Source: a virus
Taxonomy: Duplodnaviria; Heunggongvirae; Uroviricota; Caudoviricetes
Length of the DNA stretch: 39,917 nucleotides
IMG/VR virus record: IMGVR_UViG_2851976983_000004
Strand: one strand, 5' to 3'
Part shown: positions 2,789 to 34,688 of the stretch, in pieces
Layout: every line of letters starts with the position of its first letter
How positions within the stretch are numbered: position 1 is the first letter of the stretch
Made by a program: the position numbers and the translations under genes
Notes under the pieces: generated by a model
What the model saw: the letters and a program-made list of their open reading frames with translations, nothing else
What the model was told of the DNA's origin: nothing
Databases searched by the model: none

Positions 2789-3319
2789 TTACTGCACATC
2801 CTGCTCAAAAGGAATTATTGAAAAATCCTCAATATCACTTTTTATGGTAATACCGGGAATATTTTTCACGGCCTCTTTTTCATTCAGAATGGCATCTTTA
2901 TTTATTTCCTCTTTTACACGAATAAAGCGCTCAAGCCCCAGACGTCTCAGTAGTTCAATAACATTATCCGCTCCACGGATACTGACTGATGGCGGACGGT
3001 TTCGCCACTGCACCTCGCCGGTGGTGAGGTTAGCGAACTTCACCTTCCCGTTGCCGGTCAGTTCATCACGGTGTGCCTCACACCATGTCTGAATACCGGA
3101 CTGCAGTTCGGCCATGCGTTTTTTTAGGCTCTCGGTGAGCGGGGCATAACGTGCGGTGATATCGCCAATGGCGTCATTCATTTCTGTTTCAGCCCTGACC
3201 AGTTCACGTTGTGCGTCACCGAGCAGTCTGATTCCCTCAATGACCTCTTCGCGTGTCCCCGGTACCCAGAGTGCCGCTGCGGACTTGATACGTTTTGCCC
3301 CTTTTGTACTTTTTGCCAT
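2789..3319 (-). CDS. gam: Gam-like host-nuclease inhibitor (Mu Gam family)
   Basis: 176-aa ORF, size and sequence character of Mu Gam, positioned between B-like and mor-like genes. Confidence 0.75.
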   Translation of the reverse strand: MAKSTKGAKRIKSAAALWVPGTREEVIEGIRLLGDAQRELVRAETEMNDAIGDITARYAPLTESLKKRMAELQSGIQTWCEAHRDELTGNGKVKFANLTTGEVQWRNRPPSVSIRGADNVIELLRRLGLERFIRVKEEINKDAILNEKEAVKNIPGITIKSDIEDFSIIPFEQDVQ

Positions 3320-3618: not shown

Positions 3619-4812
3619 TTAAACCCCTTTGACAACGTCAGCGTTGACCTGTGGAACCCCGATTTCAGCGGCCAGATTCATGGCGGCTATCACCAGGTTA
3701 CTGACGGCCAGCGGATACAACAGGCTGACCATATTTTTACGATGACTTCCCGGATTGCTCAGGCGGGCACGTATGGCATCCACTGCACTGGCGTCCATAA
3801 TGTCCGTCAGTTGTTTACCTGCCCGTTGCAGTTTGAACGTCAGAAACTCTTCAAGGTTATTGTCCAGAGGCAGAAGTTCGACCACCTCACAGCGCTGAAC
3901 GACTTCACGGACTTCCATATTGCGTTCAGACAGTTTTGTCGCCAGTTCCGGCTGGCCAATCAGCACGATGGACAGCAGTTTTTTGAAACCGGACTCCAGC
4001 TCAAAAAAGCGTTTGAGGTGTTTCAGTGTCGGAATGGGCAGACTGTGGGCCTCCTCAATCACCAGAACGTGGCTGAACCCCGCCTGGCTGCTGTCTTTCA
4101 GGACGCGATGCAACTGGCGAAAGCGGGCGTCCTGACTGCGTCTGATGCTTTCCAGTGGTGCGATGGTACTGATAATGGCTTCGGCAATAGCTGCTGCCTT
4201 CAGGGTTTTCCCTTTCACATCGTTGTCTTCCATAGCGATGATGTATGGCTCGATAACAATTACCGGCGCATTCTCGCGGTTGATACGTTCAGTCAGGTCG
4301 CGGCGCAGCGTGGATTTACCCGCACCGGACTCACCGATGACGGCCATAAACCCACCATGACGGGCTGTCTGGTACAACGCCTCACGCACGTAGCGAATGT
4401 CCGGGGTGGTGAACACATCATCAGAACCCTGCATGGCTTCGTCGGCGAACGGGTCACGGAAAAGACCAAACGCTTTTTTGGTTGCCGGGAATAACACCTG
4501 TTTTTTGAGTAACATATTCTCTTCCTCACTGAGGCTCGTTTTATCTGTGGTACCCGCTGTACGGGGAGTGGCCGCGCCCTGTACAGCATCAAAACTCTTC
4601 GCTGTATCAATCCCCTGACTTTCCAGCCAGGACGCAAGACGCCGGCGCACTTCTCCGGGGCTGGTGCGGGGCCACGCGTTATGATTCACAATCTGGGCCA
4701 GCGTGGCCTCAGAAACATCGACAGCTCTCGCCACCACCGCCTGTGGAATACGGGCCTCTTTCAGTTGCTGCTTCAGTACCAGCATGTTTCCCTCCTCAGT
4801 TGCCGTTAACAA
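3619..4812 (-). CDS. MuB-like transposition ATPase (AAA+), N-terminal HTH
   Basis: 397-aa ORF with Walker A GESGAGKST; directly downstream of and overlapping the transposase gene. Confidence 0.85.
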   Translation of the reverse strand: MLTATEEGNMLVLKQQLKEARIPQAVVARAVDVSEATLAQIVNHNAWPRTSPGEVRRRLASWLESQGIDTAKSFDAVQGAATPRTAGTTDKTSLSEEENMLLKKQVLFPATKKAFGLFRDPFADEAMQGSDDVFTTPDIRYVREALYQTARHGGFMAVIGESGAGKSTLRRDLTERINRENAPVIVIEPYIIAMEDNDVKGKTLKAAAIAEAIISTIAPLESIRRSQDARFRQLHRVLKDSSQAGFSHVLVIEEAHSLPIPTLKHLKRFFELESGFKKLLSIVLIGQPELATKLSERNMEVREVVQRCEVVELLPLDNNLEEFLTFKLQRAGKQLTDIMDASAVDAIRARLSNPGSHRKNMVSLLYPLAVSNLVIAAMNLAAEIGVPQVNADVVKGV

Positions 4813-6568: not shown

Positions 6569-7480
6569 TTATGCCTCCAGCCCGTTAATCTGTGGCGTCG
6601 GCTCAGTCAGCCATGAAGGCGCGACATCGCCTGTTGGCTCGTCCGGCAGGTCAAATGTGGAGCGCAGGCTACGCGCTGTGCTTTCCAGTTGACAGACCAG
6701 GCCTGCCATGAAGTCTCTGGGGGTATCAATCATGTTTTCAGCACAATATGCGCACAGTGTCTCAAAAGCGCTGGACAGTCGAACGGCGATGGCAGATTCC
6801 GCCTCAACCGCTAACGCGGTCACTTCCGCCCGCAGTTTCTTCACCTCTTCATCAGGCTCAGGTGGCTGAATACGGGATTTCTTCTCCAGTCTGGTGGAGA
6901 GTGAGTCTATTTTTTCATTTTTATCGGCGAGAACACGCTGTTGTGCTGCGTTGGTTTCGCGCGCTTCACGCAGGGCCTGACGCAATTCACGTACTGACAT
7001 GCGATCAACATCGTCAAGCGTCATGCCGGCAACTGTGCCGCCGTCGGCCAGTTCGGCAAGCTCTTCGTCGTCTTCTGTCATTAATTCGAAAAGTTTGGCT
7101 TTTCCCAAATGTGCCAACGTTGGCACATTTGGTTTCAGCGCCGGGGATAAGTATTTTGTCGATGCTTGCATCATTCTCACAGATGTCCGGTATGCCAGCC
7201 CCAACTCACTTTCAAGAATCTTTATAAACTCCCCGTGTGGTTCATTTTCCTTAAGGATTATCAGCCGCTTACCTGCCTCCAGCATGGCCTCAGCGCTCTG
7301 TGCCATATAAAAGCGTGCCTCATGGACAACACGATCGCGCTCATAGGGCAGACCATCGCCGAACTGTTGCATGATTTCCATGCGATGCTGTGTCATGGCG
7401 TTTAGACTGACATTGAGATCATCCGACAGCGGTACCTCGACGTTCAGTTCAGTGCTAACCGGTGATTTGGTGCGTCCCAT
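6569..7480 (-). CDS. hypothetical early protein, acidic with coiled-coil region
   Basis: 303-aa ORF between the regulator genes and the transposase; stop 4 bp before transposase start; family not recognised. Confidence 0.55.
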   Translation of the reverse strand: MGRTKSPVSTELNVEVPLSDDLNVSLNAMTQHRMEIMQQFGDGLPYERDRVVHEARFYMAQSAEAMLEAGKRLIILKENEPHGEFIKILESELGLAYRTSVRMMQASTKYLSPALKPNVPTLAHLGKAKLFELMTEDDEELAELADGGTVAGMTLDDVDRMSVRELRQALREARETNAAQQRVLADKNEKIDSLSTRLEKKSRIQPPEPDEEVKKLRAEVTALAVEAESAIAVRLSSAFETLCAYCAENMIDTPRDFMAGLVCQLESTARSLRSTFDLPDEPTGDVAPSWLTEPTPQINGLEA

Positions 7481-8087: not shown

Positions 8088-8116
8088 ATTATGAGAACTA
8101 TTGTTCTCATTGTCAA
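8088..8116 (-). promoter_or_regulatory. candidate early promoter: -35 TTGACA, 17-nt spacer, -10 CATAAT
   Basis: On minus strand TTGACA (8116..8111), spacer, CATAAT (8093..8088), about 45 nt upstream of ner-like ATG. Confidence 0.5.
8091..8110. promoter_or_regulatory. perfect 20-bp palindrome ATGAGAACTATTGTTCTCAT, candidate operator
   Basis: 8-4-8 perfect inverted repeat lying within spacer and -10 of the candidate early promoter, between divergent regulator genes. Confidence 0.55.
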
Positions 8117-8552
8117 TGAGGTTTATGTGAATTTTGATTCTCTTTGCGCGTCGCGGTTCAAAGCTGAGCGTTCGCGGTTATCACTCAAGCAGGCTGAAGT
8201 AGCAGCCCTTTGTGGCGTTTCAAGAGAAATGTGGGGGAAATATGAACGAGGGGTTGCAGTTCCCGGAGGTGAGTTACTTGCAGCCTTTGCAAGAATTGGG
8301 GCCAACGTACAGTTCATTCTTACTGGGGAATCATCAGGTATAACTTTATCACGTGATGAAATGGAGTTACTTCAGCACTACCGGCAAGCACCGTTACAAG
8401 TCAAAGGTTCAGTTTTGTCGGCATTGACGACTGGCTCCTCCAGAGAACGGGCGGAACAGGTTATTCATGGAGATGTTCTGGGGAATGTTATCAAAGGTAA
8501 CGTAACCATAGGAACAGGTGGAATAATGAACAAAAATACAAAGAGAAAATGA
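8091..8552 (+). CDS. XRE-family HTH repressor (candidate lysogeny repressor)
   Basis: HTH segment LSLKQAEVAALCGVSREMWGKYERG; divergent from ner-like gene. ATG at 8091 lies inside the palindrome, so the real start may be GTG 8127 (GAGG upstream). Confidence 0.7.
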   Translation: MRTIVLIVNEVYVNFDSLCASRFKAERSRLSLKQAEVAALCGVSREMWGKYERGVAVPGGELLAAFARIGANVQFILTGESSGITLSRDEMELLQHYRQAPLQVKGSVLSALTTGSSRERAEQVIHGDVLGNVIKGNVTIGTGGIMNKNTKRK

Positions 8553-9535
8553 GTAAAGAGAAGCAAACAGTTAACGGAGATGTGGGTAACGTTGTCAGCG
8601 GTGATGTTACCATTCATAACTATTCTGCTGACATACTTCCCTCTGCCCAGCAACCAATTTCGTTGCTGCAAAAACGCGATTTACACAGATTGATGGATGA
8701 ATTGGTTGATCTGGGGGAAAGTAAGCGCGAACTATGGATGACGATCCACACGAAACTTAATACCAAAACAGTTAATGAAATGACTGCGGCTGATTATCAT
8801 GGTGCGGTTGAGATCCTCCAGAGATATGCACAACAGATCCAGAATATGAAGGACTGTAATCTTCTGGTCAGCAAAATAATGGTGCTTACTGACCCTAGGT
8901 ATCGTCTTGACCGTGACAGATACTGTCTGAAGCATTTCGGTACAACCCATCTTAAAGGCCTGGACAAAGAGCAGTTGCAGGCTGTGTTTGGTTATTTTGA
9001 TGATCTGCTGAATATTCGTGATGAGAGTAAAACTCTATCACCTCCATCGGACAGCGGGGCAAAATCAGTCGCGACTGTACCAACCAGAAGCCGGAAGCCT
9101 CATGTAGTAGTGTTGGGGGGAGCGTTAGTTCTTGTCGCAATATTTTTCGTGGGAATGATTGTGTTCGCTGGTAAATGGGGAAATGCTAAAGCAGTAGCAT
9201 CTACTGAAACCAGCGTTTTTAACATTAAAACCAACGACAAAATAATAGAAGATTCCATCCCAGCATTACGCAGCATGTTTCCAGGGTTAAATAAGTACTC
9301 AGATGATTTCCATTCGGTTTCAAGCTACAAGCAAAAATCGGGCTGGCATACCCTTAAATTCACGGTGTCTACACAGGCAATAATACCTGAATCTTATGGT
9401 GTTAAAGGGAAAACTTGTTACATCAACATAAACCCCGATGGTCGTTATGCCCGTGTTTTGACCGCCCCATGTAGAGCTCTATTACTTGACCAACAAAACA
9501 CTCCAGATAGTAAATATCGTTATATTTTGAAATAG
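8549..9535 (+). CDS. membrane protein, unknown function (single central TM helix)
   Basis: 328-aa ORF, ATGA overlap with repressor stop; hydrophobic stretch VVVLGGALVLVAIFFVGMIVFAG; AT-rich. Confidence 0.6.
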   Translation: MSKEKQTVNGDVGNVVSGDVTIHNYSADILPSAQQPISLLQKRDLHRLMDELVDLGESKRELWMTIHTKLNTKTVNEMTAADYHGAVEILQRYAQQIQNMKDCNLLVSKIMVLTDPRYRLDRDRYCLKHFGTTHLKGLDKEQLQAVFGYFDDLLNIRDESKTLSPPSDSGAKSVATVPTRSRKPHVVVLGGALVLVAIFFVGMIVFAGKWGNAKAVASTETSVFNIKTNDKIIEDSIPALRSMFPGLNKYSDDFHSVSSYKQKSGWHTLKFTVSTQAIIPESYGVKGKTCYININPDGRYARVLTAPCRALLLDQQNTPDSKYRYILK

Positions 9536-9555
9536 AAAATAACTGCGAGGCTATT

Positions 9556-10167
9556 ATGGGGCTAATTAAACGATATAGAACAGATTATCCGAACCAAGTA
9601 CATCAACTTTCTGTTGCTGTTTCAAAGCATTATTATGCGGGAGTTGATGGATTGCTTAAGTACCAGAAAAAACCATTTGATATAAAACTTAGCAATGCAA
9701 GTAAAACTGGAAAAGATCATTTACTAGTCTATTCGTTACGCGATCACTACAGTGGTTTGTTTTATATAGAATTGGCATTTCTTTCTACACCACAACCTAT
9801 AACAGCTTTTTTGGGAAGGGCATGGAGGCCAAAGGAAGATAACGTGTTACAGGGTCTTCCTGATATGCTGATGATCCCCAAAACTGTAGAAGATGAGTTC
9901 CCTAACGTATGTAATGCCGTTTATAACCAAGGAGTTGATCTTTTAAAAGTAACCAGCGGTTTTCAGAGTGGAGGGCTTATCGCCATACGAGCGGTAGAGG
10001 AAGATCTTAAATTCTACACAAATACTCCTATAGCACGAGTTCGTGAGGTTGCGGTTAAAACATGCAGATACAATGCTAATGATATCGCCCGAACCAATAA
10101 AGAAACAAAGCAAGAGATGTGGTTACGAAACGTCGGTCAGATAGATATACCTTCTCCAGATTTTTGA
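9556..10167 (+). CDS. hypothetical protein
   Basis: 203-aa ORF, GAGG about 8 nt upstream of ATG, AT-rich, no family recognised. Confidence 0.55.
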   Translation: MGLIKRYRTDYPNQVHQLSVAVSKHYYAGVDGLLKYQKKPFDIKLSNASKTGKDHLLVYSLRDHYSGLFYIELAFLSTPQPITAFLGRAWRPKEDNVLQGLPDMLMIPKTVEDEFPNVCNAVYNQGVDLLKVTSGFQSGGLIAIRAVEEDLKFYTNTPIARVREVAVKTCRYNANDIARTNKETKQEMWLRNVGQIDIPSPDF

Positions 10168-10429
10168 AACCTGAAATCACGGTGTCGACGGTTCATTCTG
10201 ACGCATCATTTATTCTCGTCAGTTGCCTCATATTCGTGCGTGCTAGGAAACATCGGCCAGAATATGTCTGGCATGGCGGCGTTTACAACCAATCCATGGA
10301 GCGATGGGGAATGTCTGCATTTTCATAATCTGTAACCCTTTTATAATTATAAAAAATATGGCAGGCTAGTCTGGTCTCGCGAGACTGACTGAACCTCGGT
10401 CGGCTCACAGTGCATTCCTGTGGGGCGAT

Positions 10430-10469
10430 GACCAGCCCGGAGTTCGGGTACCGGGCTGGTCGTTCTTTC
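10430..10469 (+). terminator. stem-loop (11-bp perfect stem) followed by GUUCUUUC, candidate terminator
   Basis: GACCAGCCCGG-agttcgggta-CCGGGCTGGTC at 10430-10461 then T-rich run. Confidence 0.4.
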
Positions 10470-10576
10470 ACTGTCAGAGTTCAGAGTGAAGTTTTGAGAT
10501 ACATGATTTCTATTAACGCGATTTACTGGATGCATTACCTACGTGCAGTGTTTGTTCGATAAGGATTGTTTTCTGA

Positions 10577-11152
10577 ATGGGAACGTATTACACACTTGAT
10601 TCCGCTAGTCGTCTGCCTTCGCCTTGTCATGTAATTACCGGAAAATACGAGCCTGAAATGCCAGAACTGGCCGCTTTTCTTCATCAGATGTATCCCAATG
10701 GCCTTTCGAGTCACGGGTATAACTATCTCTATAACCCCGGCCCTAAAATGGAAGATGACAGTGGAATCAGCAGAAGTCTGCTGGTCGGTCTGGTGTTTGA
10801 GTTAGTTCGCCGTAGCCATTTTCCTGATAAACCTTCCCGCTATCAGTCACTGTTTGCCTGTCAGCATCTGAGTGAAGTCAGGAAGTTCAGGGAATTACTG
10901 GCTGATGAGAGAGGCGAAGACGAAATAAGAACGGCACCGATATATGAAGTCATCACAAATGAGCAGGTGCATCGCGGAGATATGAGGTTATTGAACAGTG
11001 ATTGCCCGGTGCTGGAACTGTATCACCGTGCTTGGCTTTACTGGTCGGGTGAAGCAGCCCCAGTTAAGACTGGTGAGGACGAACCGTTCTGGGAACTGCT
11101 GATTCCGCTTCCAGTATTCGTTGGTCGAAGGATAACTGAATCGCAGGATTAG
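10577..11152 (+). CDS. hypothetical protein
   Basis: 191-aa ORF, no family recognised. Confidence 0.5.
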   Translation: MGTYYTLDSASRLPSPCHVITGKYEPEMPELAAFLHQMYPNGLSSHGYNYLYNPGPKMEDDSGISRSLLVGLVFELVRRSHFPDKPSRYQSLFACQHLSEVRKFRELLADERGEDEIRTAPIYEVITNEQVHRGDMRLLNSDCPVLELYHRAWLYWSGEAAPVKTGEDEPFWELLIPLPVFVGRRITESQD

Positions 11153-11387
11153 GTGCGGTTTTATATCGTGATGTCGCCGCCACATCGCCAATTAGCATGA
11201 CGTTGTTTTCTCCGCTGGCGAAATGACTTCTTCTCTCTTCAAGTGCAACCAGAACGTTTTTCAGCTCTATAATCGCTTCGGTTGGACAACATGCATCCAA
11301 GCTTAGCGTGTAAGTTTTATTCTGCTCTCCGATTCTGCTCCCAAAGAGGAACCCTTTTTTAATACCAGACTGTTTCGGTTCAGTCAT
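11064..11387 (-). CDS. hypothetical protein (convergent, overlaps 3' end of previous gene)
   Basis: ORF 11064..11447 trimmed to ATG 11387 preceded by GGGGAGG; overlaps 10577..11152 antisense by about 89 bp, so one of the two may be wrongly called. Confidence 0.3.
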   Translation of the reverse strand: MTEPKQSGIKKGFLFGSRIGEQNKTYTLSLDACCPTEAIIELKNVLVALEERRSHFASGENNVMLIGDVAATSRYKTAPNPAIQLSFDQRILEAESAVPRTVRPHQS

Positions 11388-11458
11388 TGTGCTTGCCTCC
11401 CCTATGTTTTGTGTGCGACCATTCTGGTCGCTTCCCTCTGCGAACACTTATAACGCGC

Positions 11459-11467
11459 TTTAAAATC
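11459..11467 (+). promoter_or_regulatory. recurring motif TTTAAAATC (candidate late promoter -10 region) upstream of lysis genes
   Basis: One of four occurrences of TTTAA(A/T)ATC 30-56 nt upstream of the first gene of a late gene block. Confidence 0.3.
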
Positions 11468-11517
11468 CGTATCCCGCCACATTTGTGATGCTGTCTCCAC
11501 CAAACAAGGAGACACAC

Positions 11518-11868
11518 ATGAAAAGCCTGAAAAAATTCATTCCCCCTGTTAAAAAACCTCGCCTCAGCGGCTGGCTGCTGACCTCAGTGCTGTTGCTGGG
11601 CACCATCGCTCTGGTCTCGCCACAGCAGTTGCCTGTTGTGATCTACAAGCTGGCACTCATCACGCTGGCAGCAGTGCTGGGTTACTGGCTTGACCGTTCG
11701 CTCTTCCCCAAAGCCCGTCCCGGTCAGTACCTGAAACATGAAGACAGGCTGATGGCTGAAGGGCGTTTCCCTGTGCAGACCGGCCTTCACCTTGTATTTT
11801 CTGCTGCGTTAATCCGCCGTGCACTGATTGTTGCAGCGGTCTGTCTGGCTGTGGCAACAGGACTGTGA
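11518..11868 (+). CDS. membrane protein, putative holin
   Basis: ATG at 11518 preceded by AAGGAG; about 116 aa with three hydrophobic segments; immediately upstream of endolysin. Confidence 0.45.
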   Translation: MKSLKKFIPPVKKPRLSGWLLTSVLLLGTIALVSPQQLPVVIYKLALITLAAVLGYWLDRSLFPKARPGQYLKHEDRLMAEGRFPVQTGLHLVFSAALIRRALIVAAVCLAVATGL

Positions 11869-31128: not shown

Positions 31129-33127
<1,999 letters not shown>

Positions 33128-33459: not shown

Positions 33460-33825
33460 ATGATTGATGTCTTAGGGCCGGAGAAACGCAGACGGCGTAC
33501 CACACAGGAAAAGATCGCAATTGTTCAGCAGAGCTTTGAACCGGGGATGACGGTCTCCCTCGTTGCCCGGCAACATGGTGTAGCAGCCAGCCAGTTATTT
33601 CTCTGGCGTAAGCAATACCAGGAAGGAAGTCTTACTGCTGTCGCCGCCGGAGAACAGGTTGTTCCTGCCTCTGAACTTGCTGCCGCCATGAAGCAGATTA
33701 AAGAACTCCAGCGCCTGCTCGGCAAGAAAACGATGGAAAATGAACTCCTCAAAGAAGCCGTTGAATATGGACGGGCAAAAAAGTGGATAGCGCACGCGCC
33801 CTTATTGCCCGGGGATGGGGAGTAA
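33460..33825 (+). CDS. insC: IS2 transposase OrfA (InsC)
   Basis: [41 protein letters not shown]... is the IS2 OrfA sequence as I remember it; ORF table start 33415 is an upstream extension. Confidence 0.9.
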
Positions 33826-34688
33826 GCTTAGTCAGCCGTTGTCTCCGGGTGTCGCGTGCGCAGTTGCACGTCATTCTCAGACGAACCGATGACTGGATGG
33901 ATGGCCGCCGCAGTCGTCACACTGATGATACGGATGTGCTTCTCCGTATACACCATGTTATCGGAGAGCTGCCCACGTATGGTTATCGTCGGGTATGGGC
34001 GCTGCTTCGCAGACAGGCAGAACTTGATGGTATGCCTGCGATCAATGCCAAACGTGTTTACCGGATCATGCGCCAGAATGCGCTGTTGCTTGAGCGAAAA
34101 CCTGCTGTACCGCCATCGAAACGGGCACATACAGGCAGAGTGGCCGTGAAAGAAAGCAATCAGCGATGGTGCTCTGACGGGTTCGAGTTCTGCTGTGATA
34201 ACGGAGAGAGACTGCGTGTCACGTTCGCGCTGGACTGCTGTGATCGTGAGGCACTGCACTGGGCGGTGACTACCGGCGGCTTCAACAGTGAAACAGTACA
34301 GGACGTCATGCTGGGAGCGGTGGAACGCCGCTTCGGCAACGATCTTCCGTCGTCTCCAGTGGAGTGGCTGACGGATAATGGTTCATGCTACCGGGCTAAT
34401 GAAACACGCCAGTTCGCCCGGATGTTGGGACTTGAACCGAAGAACACGGCGGTGCGGAGTCCGGAGAGTAACGGAATAGCAGAGAGCTTCGTGAAAACGA
34501 TAAAGCGTGACTACATCAGTATCATGCCCAAACCAGACGGGTTAACGGCAGCAAAGAACCTTGCAGAGGCGTTCGAGCATTATAACGAATGGCATCCGCA
34601 TAGTGCGCTGGGTTATCGCTCGCCACGGGAATATCTGCGGCAGCGGGCTTGTAATGGGTTAAGTGATAACAGATGTCTGGAAATATAG
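33783..34688 (+). CDS. insD: IS2 transposase OrfB (InsD), normally expressed as OrfAB frameshift fusion
   Basis: 301-aa ORF overlapping insC, DDE integrase core. Confidence 0.9.

Follow-up and report, generated by a model that had tools for sequence, protein, structure and literature searches.

In a gap between two genes of a Mu-like prophage, a conserved structured RNA element of 117 nt was recognized at positions 10354–10470 of the plus strand. The prophage occupies a stretch of 39,917 nucleotides (IMG/VR virus record IMGVR_UViG_2851976983_000004), called here the window, which is 100% identical to part of an Escherichia coli chromosome and is a complete transposable prophage of the BcepMu type. 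The element is composed of a 5′ tail, three consecutive hairpins (P1, P2, and P3), and a U-rich tail. It is very probable that a genuine structured RNA is read from the plus strand here, and likely that this RNA is an independent, terminated transcript. It accompanies the DNA adenine methylase gene (dam) of related prophages, on the opposite strand. A role of the RNA as antisense regulator of dam is proposed more tentatively, at somewhat below an even chance.

An earlier note, made from the letters of this DNA alone, had suggested a promoter, a structured transcript of roughly 110 nt, and a terminator on the plus strand of the gap at 10168–10576 (409 bp), which separates a 203-aa gene (9556–10167) from a 191-aa gene (10577–11152). 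The sequence features on which it relied are all present: an AT-rich, −10-like palindrome, TTATAATTATAA, at 10341–10352; a perfect 12-bp palindrome, GTCTCGCGAGAC, at 10374–10385; and a perfect 11-bp stem-loop with its tail. The 12-bp palindrome is the tip of P1, and the stem-loop is the terminator hairpin P3. P1 (10364–10398) is a long imperfect stem that ends in the stem GUCU/AGAC and the loop CGCG. P2 (10399–10429) has 12 stem positions, including CTCACAG/CTGTGGG, and a hypervariable loop of 6–7 nt (10411–10417); 11 of its pairs are formed in the window, where G10403/G10425 is mismatched. P3 and its tail (10430–10470) make up an end that resembles an intrinsic terminator, with perfect 11-bp arms GACCAGCCCGG (10430–10440) and CCGGGCTGGTC (10451–10461), a 10-nt loop, and the 9-nt tail GTTCTTTCA (10462–10470). 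The P3 stem is GC-rich and 11–13 bp long, and the tail is GUUCUUUCA, or GCUCUUUUC or GCUCUUUUU in the second subtype described below, as is characteristic of intrinsic terminators. A consensus scan placed one terminator-like site on the plus strand within the P3 hairpin.

The folding check suggested in the earlier note was favorable. The plus strand (119 nt) folds at −52.9 kcal/mol with a z-score of −3.4, and none of 200 shuffled sequences was equally stable; the minus strand folds with a z-score of −4.2. Perfect hairpins of at least 11 bp are found at four places in the window, compared with about 0.25 in shuffled sequences. The three others, at 7105, 12042, and 28990, may be terminators or regulatory sites. 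Perfect 12-bp palindromes number 10 in the window against 9.7 expected, and the palindrome alone is thus unremarkable. The count of promoter-like and terminator-like sites over 2.2 kb is likewise not above the shuffled expectation. The real significance of the element lies in its conservation and covariation.

To collect related elements, IMG/VR and a set with one genome for each species were scanned with sequence patterns, after which a covariance model was applied; about 75 related loci were compared. The element of the window scores 139.7 bits against this model over model positions 1–117, and 70 full-length matches in other loci score 121–147 bits. Among loci retrieved independently through the SLT endolysin, a second group was revealed, with seven matches of 49–67 bits (loci L295, L298, L283, L296, L303, and L288, and a second copy in L236). 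These two groups are designated as subtypes 1 and 2. They are 64–69% identical to each other and have the three-hairpin fold in common. The element is present in 555 of 5426 complete E. coli genomes and in Klebsiella phage KP12. Further sources are Pantoea, Mixta, Symbiopectobacterium, Buttiauxella, Trabulsiella, Intestinirhabdus, Erwinia dacicola, Limnobaculum, Pseudocitrobacter, and Apirhabdus. Prophages of at least 10 other genera of Enterobacterales carry the element.

Conservation in related prophages, another check named in the earlier note, is strong and sharply bounded. Within subtype 1 the element is 84–98% identical, above the 76–86% of dam itself, while the 27-nt spacer between them is 68–96% identical and the next 33 nt only 42–82%. 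The first 60 nt are nearly invariant in this subtype. Strong conservation ends exactly behind GTTCTTTCA, beyond which at least four different right-hand contexts are found. The predicted plus-strand terminator is supported by this sharp drop, which coincides with the end of the hairpin and its U-rich tail.

The helices are maintained by compensatory changes and G·U pairs. When sequences of either subtype are folded singly, the same three consecutive hairpins are obtained. In P3, two-sided changes are seen in 8 of 13 pairs, one of which appears as AU, UA, CG, and GC. In P2, 97% of the alignment cells are paired, and the five pairs that vary do so solely between G·U and Watson–Crick pairs. The tip stem of P1 changes from GUCU/AGAC in subtype 1 to GUUC/GAAC in subtype 2, which amounts to two compensatory changes, and the lower P1 stem is re-paired in subtype 2 with an entirely different sequence. 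G·U or U·G pairs in the P1 tip of L288, L075, L296, and L303 and a CACG loop in L236 break the symmetry of the DNA while the RNA pairing is retained. For a first model of three short helices, 99.8% of the cells of alignment A2 were paired, and its covariation score was reached by none of 500 shuffles. Pairing in P2 and P3 extends to 97.1% of the cells in alignment A4, composed of 28 diverse members, and none of 500 shuffles matched any of five measures. Two parts of the first model, a short hairpin at 10385–10403 and an extension of the terminator stem (GAUG/CGUU), were dropped after subtype 2 and the single-sequence folds became available; the longer P1 and the P2 with 12 stem positions replaced them. 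The roughly 110-nt transcript of the earlier note is thereby supported as a predicted discrete element of 116–119 nt.

The same substitutions distinguish the strands. Over 44 distinct sequences, the plus-strand helices contain 976 Watson–Crick pairs, 297 G·U pairs, and 2 mismatches, whereas the same helices read on the minus strand contain 976 Watson–Crick pairs, 1 G·U pair, and 298 mismatches. One-sided changes produce G·U on the plus strand at about 12 stem positions and a mismatch at one or two. Because the G·U intermediates are present on the plus strand only, the structured molecule is the plus-strand RNA.

Protein coding was examined in all frames. The element is 116, 117, 118, or 119 nt long, with indels in loops, and these lengths together with stop codons break every reading frame. 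Six-frame inspection found no conserved open reading frame (ORF); the sole long minus-strand frame is broken in many members with intact dam, and no pairs of CxxC motifs like those of the phage Mu protein Com are present in the minus-strand ORF over the element. On the plus strand, ATGGCAGGCTAG encodes just 3 codons. A Com-like or other small minus-strand ORF was rejected on account of 1–2-nt indels, which cause frameshifts, and stop codons. The absence of a convincing ORF from the gap, as stated in the earlier note, therefore holds across the RNA element but not for the whole gap, where a 27-codon remnant of dam is present.

Rfam 15 includes no family that matches the window at the gathering threshold, and the covariance-model scan proposed in the earlier note was thus negative. 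When the region 10100–10650 was searched at E-values up to 10, just mir-2058 (15.9 bits against a threshold of 90) and a small nucleolar RNA were reported. Subtype 2, searched at E-values up to 1, matched only P35, with 27 bits against 70 and on the wrong strand. ARAGORN detected no tRNA or tmRNA over the window, no description of the element was found in literature searches by topic and by exact sequence, and no RNA is annotated at the element in the RefSeq and GenBank records examined. As judged from comparative sequence data, the element represents a new RNA family, absent from Rfam 15, although its kind is known: it is a regulatory RNA encoded by a phage, and probably an antisense RNA.

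The dam remnant identifies the module to which the element belongs. From 10246 rightward, the gap is 82–89% identical to sequences of phages PhiKM and KP12 and of about 500 E. coli genomes, and the matching stretch in these records is annotated as the start of dam. Intact dam genes of the relatives are on the minus strand, encode 254–256 aa beginning with MK(E/M)Q(S/T)LPIVPWIGGKRRLAKHILP, and start at the position equivalent to 10326 of the window. Here only 27 codons of the 5′ end remain (MKMQTFPIAPWIGCKRRHARHILADVS, minus strand, 10246–10326), followed by a stop at 10243–10245, and the body of dam is replaced by unrelated genes for 328-aa and 203-aa proteins. Since dam is deleted, the RNA gene of the window is an orphan copy with no obvious target left. 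Both the membership in a dam module and the deletion of dam were missed by the earlier note. The 328-aa and 203-aa proteins have no match in Pfam or PADLOC, and 26 complete E. coli genomes carry their genes in the same arrangement with at least 99% identity.

Linkage between the element and dam was evaluated in 80 loci retrieved through the SLT lysis protein, independently of the RNA. The RNA is present in 56 of the 80, 54 of which have an intact dam and two a dam stub, the latter both copies of this window. None of the 24 loci without the RNA has dam (15 of these include the full 5-kb flank). This co-occurrence, 56/56 against 0/24, indicates that the element is a component of the dam module rather than of the lysis cassette. 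The dam ATG is located 27 nt from the element, on the opposite strand, in all loci but one truncated copy. Locus L236 carries an intact dam with a subtype-2 element (2389–2505), then a cargo gene, and then a dam stub with a subtype-1 element (3024–3140). The latter arrangement is the same as in this window, which indicates that dam stub and RNA move as a unit. The tandem subtypes of L236 also suggest recombination inside the conserved 5′ end of dam.

The promoter assignments are consensus matches only, in sequence contexts that are mutually related. In the window, TTTTCA-16-TATAAT (10320–10347, plus strand) matches at 10 of 12 positions and would direct initiation near 10354; the start codon of dam overlaps with its −35 hexamer. 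In E. coli-type relatives the corresponding sequence is TTTTCA-16-TACAAT, and in Klebsiella-type members it is CTTTCA-16-TGCAAT, without the A at −11; TGCAAT is also present in most other members. The promoter at 10320–10347 is therefore not conserved across the family. Thus, a candidate for the promoter suggested in the earlier note is present in the window, but its TATAAT is lineage-specific. The sole −10-like element common to nearly all members is (G/A)AAAAT at 10352–10357, which would direct a start near 10364. The surrounding AAAAATA (10352–10358) reads TATTTT on the minus strand, with a start near 10346, and may be the core of a bidirectional promoter. The RNA would accordingly begin at about 10354, from the E. 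coli-type promoter, or at about 10364, from the family-wide (G/A)AAAAT, and all three hairpins are retained with either start.

A putative control site of another kind is located on the right of the element. The 16-bp motif CTATTAACGCGATTTA (10510–10525, plus strand), a dyad of the TTAA-N7-TTAA type, precedes the DUF2441 gene as a candidate Mor-type site. Its consensus, CT(A/G)TTAA(C/T)G(C/T)nnTTTA, is found at +26 to +33 after the element in nearly all loci. A second copy at 11447–11462 precedes the holin gene, centered about 43–44 bp upstream of the start predicted from the extended −10 sequence TGTGATGCT (11484–11492), and the motif (CTATTAACGCnnTTTA) also precedes cargo genes of relatives (e.g., L013, 7426–7441). 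The Mu activators Mor and C bind 16-bp imperfect dyads centered at −43.5 in promoters without a −35 element (PMC2582627, PMC4390567). By analogy, the 16-bp motif is probably the site of the prophage's own Mor-family protein.

Leftward promoters are also predicted at this edge. A minus-strand NANNNT hexamer (CATGAT, CATCCT, or CAGTAT) is present in 37 of 45 distinct contexts, and the leftward start predicted from it is within 1–2 nt of the last base of the element, with the 16-bp dyad centered about 42–43 bp upstream. Such hexamers score 7 or more in 53% of the contexts, compared with 9% of random positions. In the window the hexamer is displaced by a 7-bp duplication (CAGAGTT/CAGAGTG), and the candidate leftward −10-like hexamers are CACTCT and AACTCT (10477–10489, minus strand), which may be active. 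The arrangement suggests one activator site between divergent promoters. There is no U run after P3 on the minus strand, and leftward transcripts would therefore read through the element.

From these observations, a cis-antisense RNA of the dam module can be proposed. Positions 10354–10470 of the plus strand would be the gene for a non-coding RNA of about 105–117 nt with three hairpins, the last of which would serve as intrinsic terminator, and the RNA would be a part of the dam module of BcepMu-like transposable prophages of Enterobacterales, on the opposite strand and directly upstream of the dam start codon. Transcription of dam would proceed leftward from a Mor-dependent promoter at the right edge of the element, giving a dam mRNA leader of about 145 nt fully complementary to the RNA. 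Pairing through loop–loop contacts would keep Dam off in the lysogen and in early infection, until late Mor-driven transcription of dam outruns the RNA. The RNA would thus take the place of the translational regulator Com. This reading is drawn from the three hairpins, the hypervariable loops, and the two discrete sequence types, which are hallmarks of cis-antisense RNAs; starts on both strands and the regulatory effect are predicted. It is the best explanation as a whole, and it approaches an even chance.

Several observations weigh against this proposal. A good match to a plus-strand promoter is restricted to E. coli-type members, and elsewhere only the weak (G/A)AAAAT without a −35 element is present. 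The terminator tail GUUCUUUCA is just moderately U-rich. The RNA is intact beside a truncated dam in this window and in L220, L211, and L214, and CCATACTGG, a part of the spacer, is also kept in relatives without dam. The near-invariance of the first 60 nt in subtype 1 is not needed by a purely cis-acting antisense RNA. As matches to the consensus the leftward hexamers are weak, and the contexts in which they occur are related and not independent. In addition, the proximal leftward −10 sequence TATTTT (10353–10358) could serve dam, in which case the mRNA and the RNA would overlap by a few nucleotides.

A more extended version of the cis-antisense proposal is possible, although it is less likely than not to hold as a whole. 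The region would be a bidirectional late control region in which one Mor-type site fires the lysis operon rightward and dam leftward, and the three-hairpin RNA, with two specificity types, would be a full-length antisense of the dam leader that replaces Com as the timer limiting Dam methylation to the late phase. Retention of the RNA after loss of dam might then add a trans role.

The first alternative is a trans-acting small RNA (sRNA), bound for example by ProQ or Hfq, which would be made in the lysogen and pair with host mRNAs or other phage mRNAs, its proximity to dam being linkage only. It would account for the nearly invariant 5′ half in subtype 1 and for the persistence of the RNA despite truncation or deletion of dam, and both the good promoter in the window and the terminator end fit classical sRNAs. 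However, the RNA is almost fully paired, its exposed P2 and P3 loops are hypervariable, most of P1 is changed in subtype 2, the U tail is poor for Hfq binding, and the co-occurrence with dam is perfect. A short-word BLAST search for trans targets in the prophage gave best matches of 10–11 nt with E-values of about 1–3, which is chance level, and a duplex scan of the whole window was uninformative, being swamped by GC-rich pairing with the terminator. The P1 10-mer CTGACTGAAC has 17 sites in the window with at most one mismatch (e.g., 4287, 6544, 21287, and 31435), against 2.7 in dinucleotide shuffles. Among the real 10-mers of the window, this count ranks at the 99.7th percentile, and the enrichment fails correction for the approximately 108 10-mers tested; the excess is probably a codon-usage effect, sense copies encoding in-frame Leu-Thr-Glu. 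A trans-acting sRNA is thus regarded as rather unlikely.

The second alternative assigns no function to the RNA. It supposes control of dam at the DNA level, through a promoter and a palindromic operator, and an insulating terminator that shields the late (lysis) promoter from plus-strand transcription of divergent or upstream origin. Relatives without dam also have a terminator-like plus-strand hairpin at an equal distance from the late-promoter motif, and in the simplest context only 105 nt separate the end of the element from the holin ATG. A possible proximal promoter of dam would have its −35 position within the palindrome, and the terminator hairpin would be free to covary. On the other hand, P1 and P2 are kept by the symmetry-breaking G·U and compensatory changes seen in L075, L288, L296, and L303, and two further conserved hairpins are needless for a terminator alone. 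The palindrome was rejected as a repeated operator, as it has no second copy in the prophage. Control of this kind is considered improbable.

A third possibility is that the element is the 5′ leader or attenuator of the downstream plus-strand genes (here the DUF2441 gene, elsewhere cargo or the lysis operon), with regulated read-through of P3 in the style of the lambda PR′–6S RNA–tR′ system. The element is directly upstream of late genes, and in L236 the cargo gene starts 52 nt past the subtype-2 element with no late-promoter motif between. Yet there are at least four downstream contexts, some with minus-strand genes, nearly all loci have an activator-type motif with its own −10 sequence between P3 and the following gene, and the element is absent from 24 of the 80 phages with the same lysis cassette; a leader function is quite improbable. 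Finally, it is very doubtful that the functional molecule is a minus-strand 5′ leader of dam comparable to the Com-responsive hairpin of Mu mom, with the plus strand unused, because the position immediately 5′ of dam, the predicted leftward starts at the right edge, and the good minus-strand fold (z = −4.2) are offset by about 300 G·U stem positions in the 44 sequences that would be A·C mismatches on the minus strand, by one-sided changes that give plus-strand G·U at about 12 stem positions against one or two mismatches, and by the lack of a Com-like ORF.

If the RNA controls the phage Dam as the cis-antisense proposal states, it would be an RNA-based answer to a problem solved elsewhere by Com, the silence of a methylase until the late phase, and it would bear on how orphan methylases of prophages are kept from altering the host methylome. 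The element also provides a clean new family for RNA databases, and it marks the border of cargo-gene exchange in these prophages.

The remaining prophage is organized as follows. The early operon on the minus strand comprises a gene for a Mor-family activator (1–390; Pfam E = 1.3 × 10−43) and, next to it, those for Gam, an ExeA-type ATPase, and the transposase. On the plus strand, a helix-turn-helix repressor-like gene (8091–8552) is followed by the two genes of unknown function (328 aa and 203 aa, 8549–10167), which fill the space up to the gap. To the right of the gap, the DUF2441 gene, the holin, the SLT endolysin, and the head and tail genes are all on the plus strand. The interval from the repressor to the late promoter resembles a hotspot of cargo exchange, and the cargo genes seem to be inserted along with their own copy of the 16-bp motif. 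Neighboring cargo genes compared with PADLOC and Pfam showed no defense match and DUF2441 only. An unannotated 108-aa ORF (MTEPKQSGIKKGF..., 11064–11390, minus strand) with the strong Shine–Dalgarno sequence GGGGAGG overlaps the 3′ end of the DUF2441 gene in antisense, and has no match in Pfam or PADLOC. According to the RefSeq annotation of the identical chromosome, the baseplate and tail region is interrupted by IS100 (istA/istB) and IS2 (31195–32996 and 33460–34688), and this copy of the prophage is therefore probably defective.

Some further observations concern hairpins near the late promoters. An inverted repeat, GTCTCC...GGAGAC (11493–11498/11508–11513), would sequester the Shine–Dalgarno sequence of the holin gene (ATG at 11518). 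It is conserved in relatives, including a U·G variant (GTTTCC) and one variant with a C/A mismatch (GCCTCC). The Mor geometry predicts a start at about 11499, in which case the 5′ arm of this repeat would stay untranscribed. The likeness of the P1 stem GUCUC/GAGAC to the hairpin GUCUCC/GGAGAC of the holin leader covers 5 complementary nt and was treated as chance. Two relatives without dam and RNA (L299 and L257, both at about 4440–4590) have another leftward gene and, equally far from the late-promoter motif, a different plus-strand hairpin that has a U-rich tail, and an analogous sense/antisense arrangement may exist there.

The element can be compared with several known systems. In lambda, the PR′–6S RNA–tR′ unit produces a short terminated transcript directly upstream of the lysis genes. 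The present element differs from it: 24 of the 80 phages with the same lysis cassette do not have the element, and where it is present, a Mor-type promoter motif, in some cases along with opposite-strand genes, intervenes between it and the lysis genes. Lambda OOP, P22 sar, P1/P7 c4, and P4 CI RNAs are short, terminator-ended RNAs that are made from their own promoters in the lysogen and pair with phage mRNA; c4 RNA is included in Rfam. The element has no Rfam match, c4 included, and its fold, phage type, and neighboring gene are different from those of these RNAs.

Another related system is translational control by Com. As in the com–mom pair of Mu and the com–dam pair of Pseudomonas phage B3, a putative regulator of a Mu-like phage is encoded directly 5′ to a late gene for DNA modification. 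The Dam proteins of phages B3, Bise, and TJ1 are 65–68% identical to the Dam of this family, and their genes are preceded by Com-like zinc-finger ORFs, so that tight post-transcriptional control of dam seems to be the rule. In Pseudomonas phage Bise (L223, 58–1089), a gene of the reverse-transcriptase family is located just upstream of the com–dam pair. Com itself is a small zinc-finger protein (CxxC...CxxC) encoded on the strand of its target, while in the prophages analyzed here an RNA is encoded on the opposite strand and no such ORF is present.

In architecture, the element is also similar to the copy-control antisense RNAs of plasmids. RNA I of ColE1 and CopA of R1 are about 100 nt long, consist of a short 5′ tail, two or three stem-loops, and a terminator, and are encoded opposite the 5′ leader of their target; their specificity types differ in loops and stems while the fold is kept. 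The element resembles them in its length, its short 5′ tail, its series of hairpins, its terminator end, and its sequence types with a common fold, and an overlap with the target transcript is predicted for it. It differs from them in having no similarity in sequence or in Rfam, in being carried by a Mu-like prophage, and in its presumed target, which would be the mRNA of a methylase and not a replication primer or rep leader.

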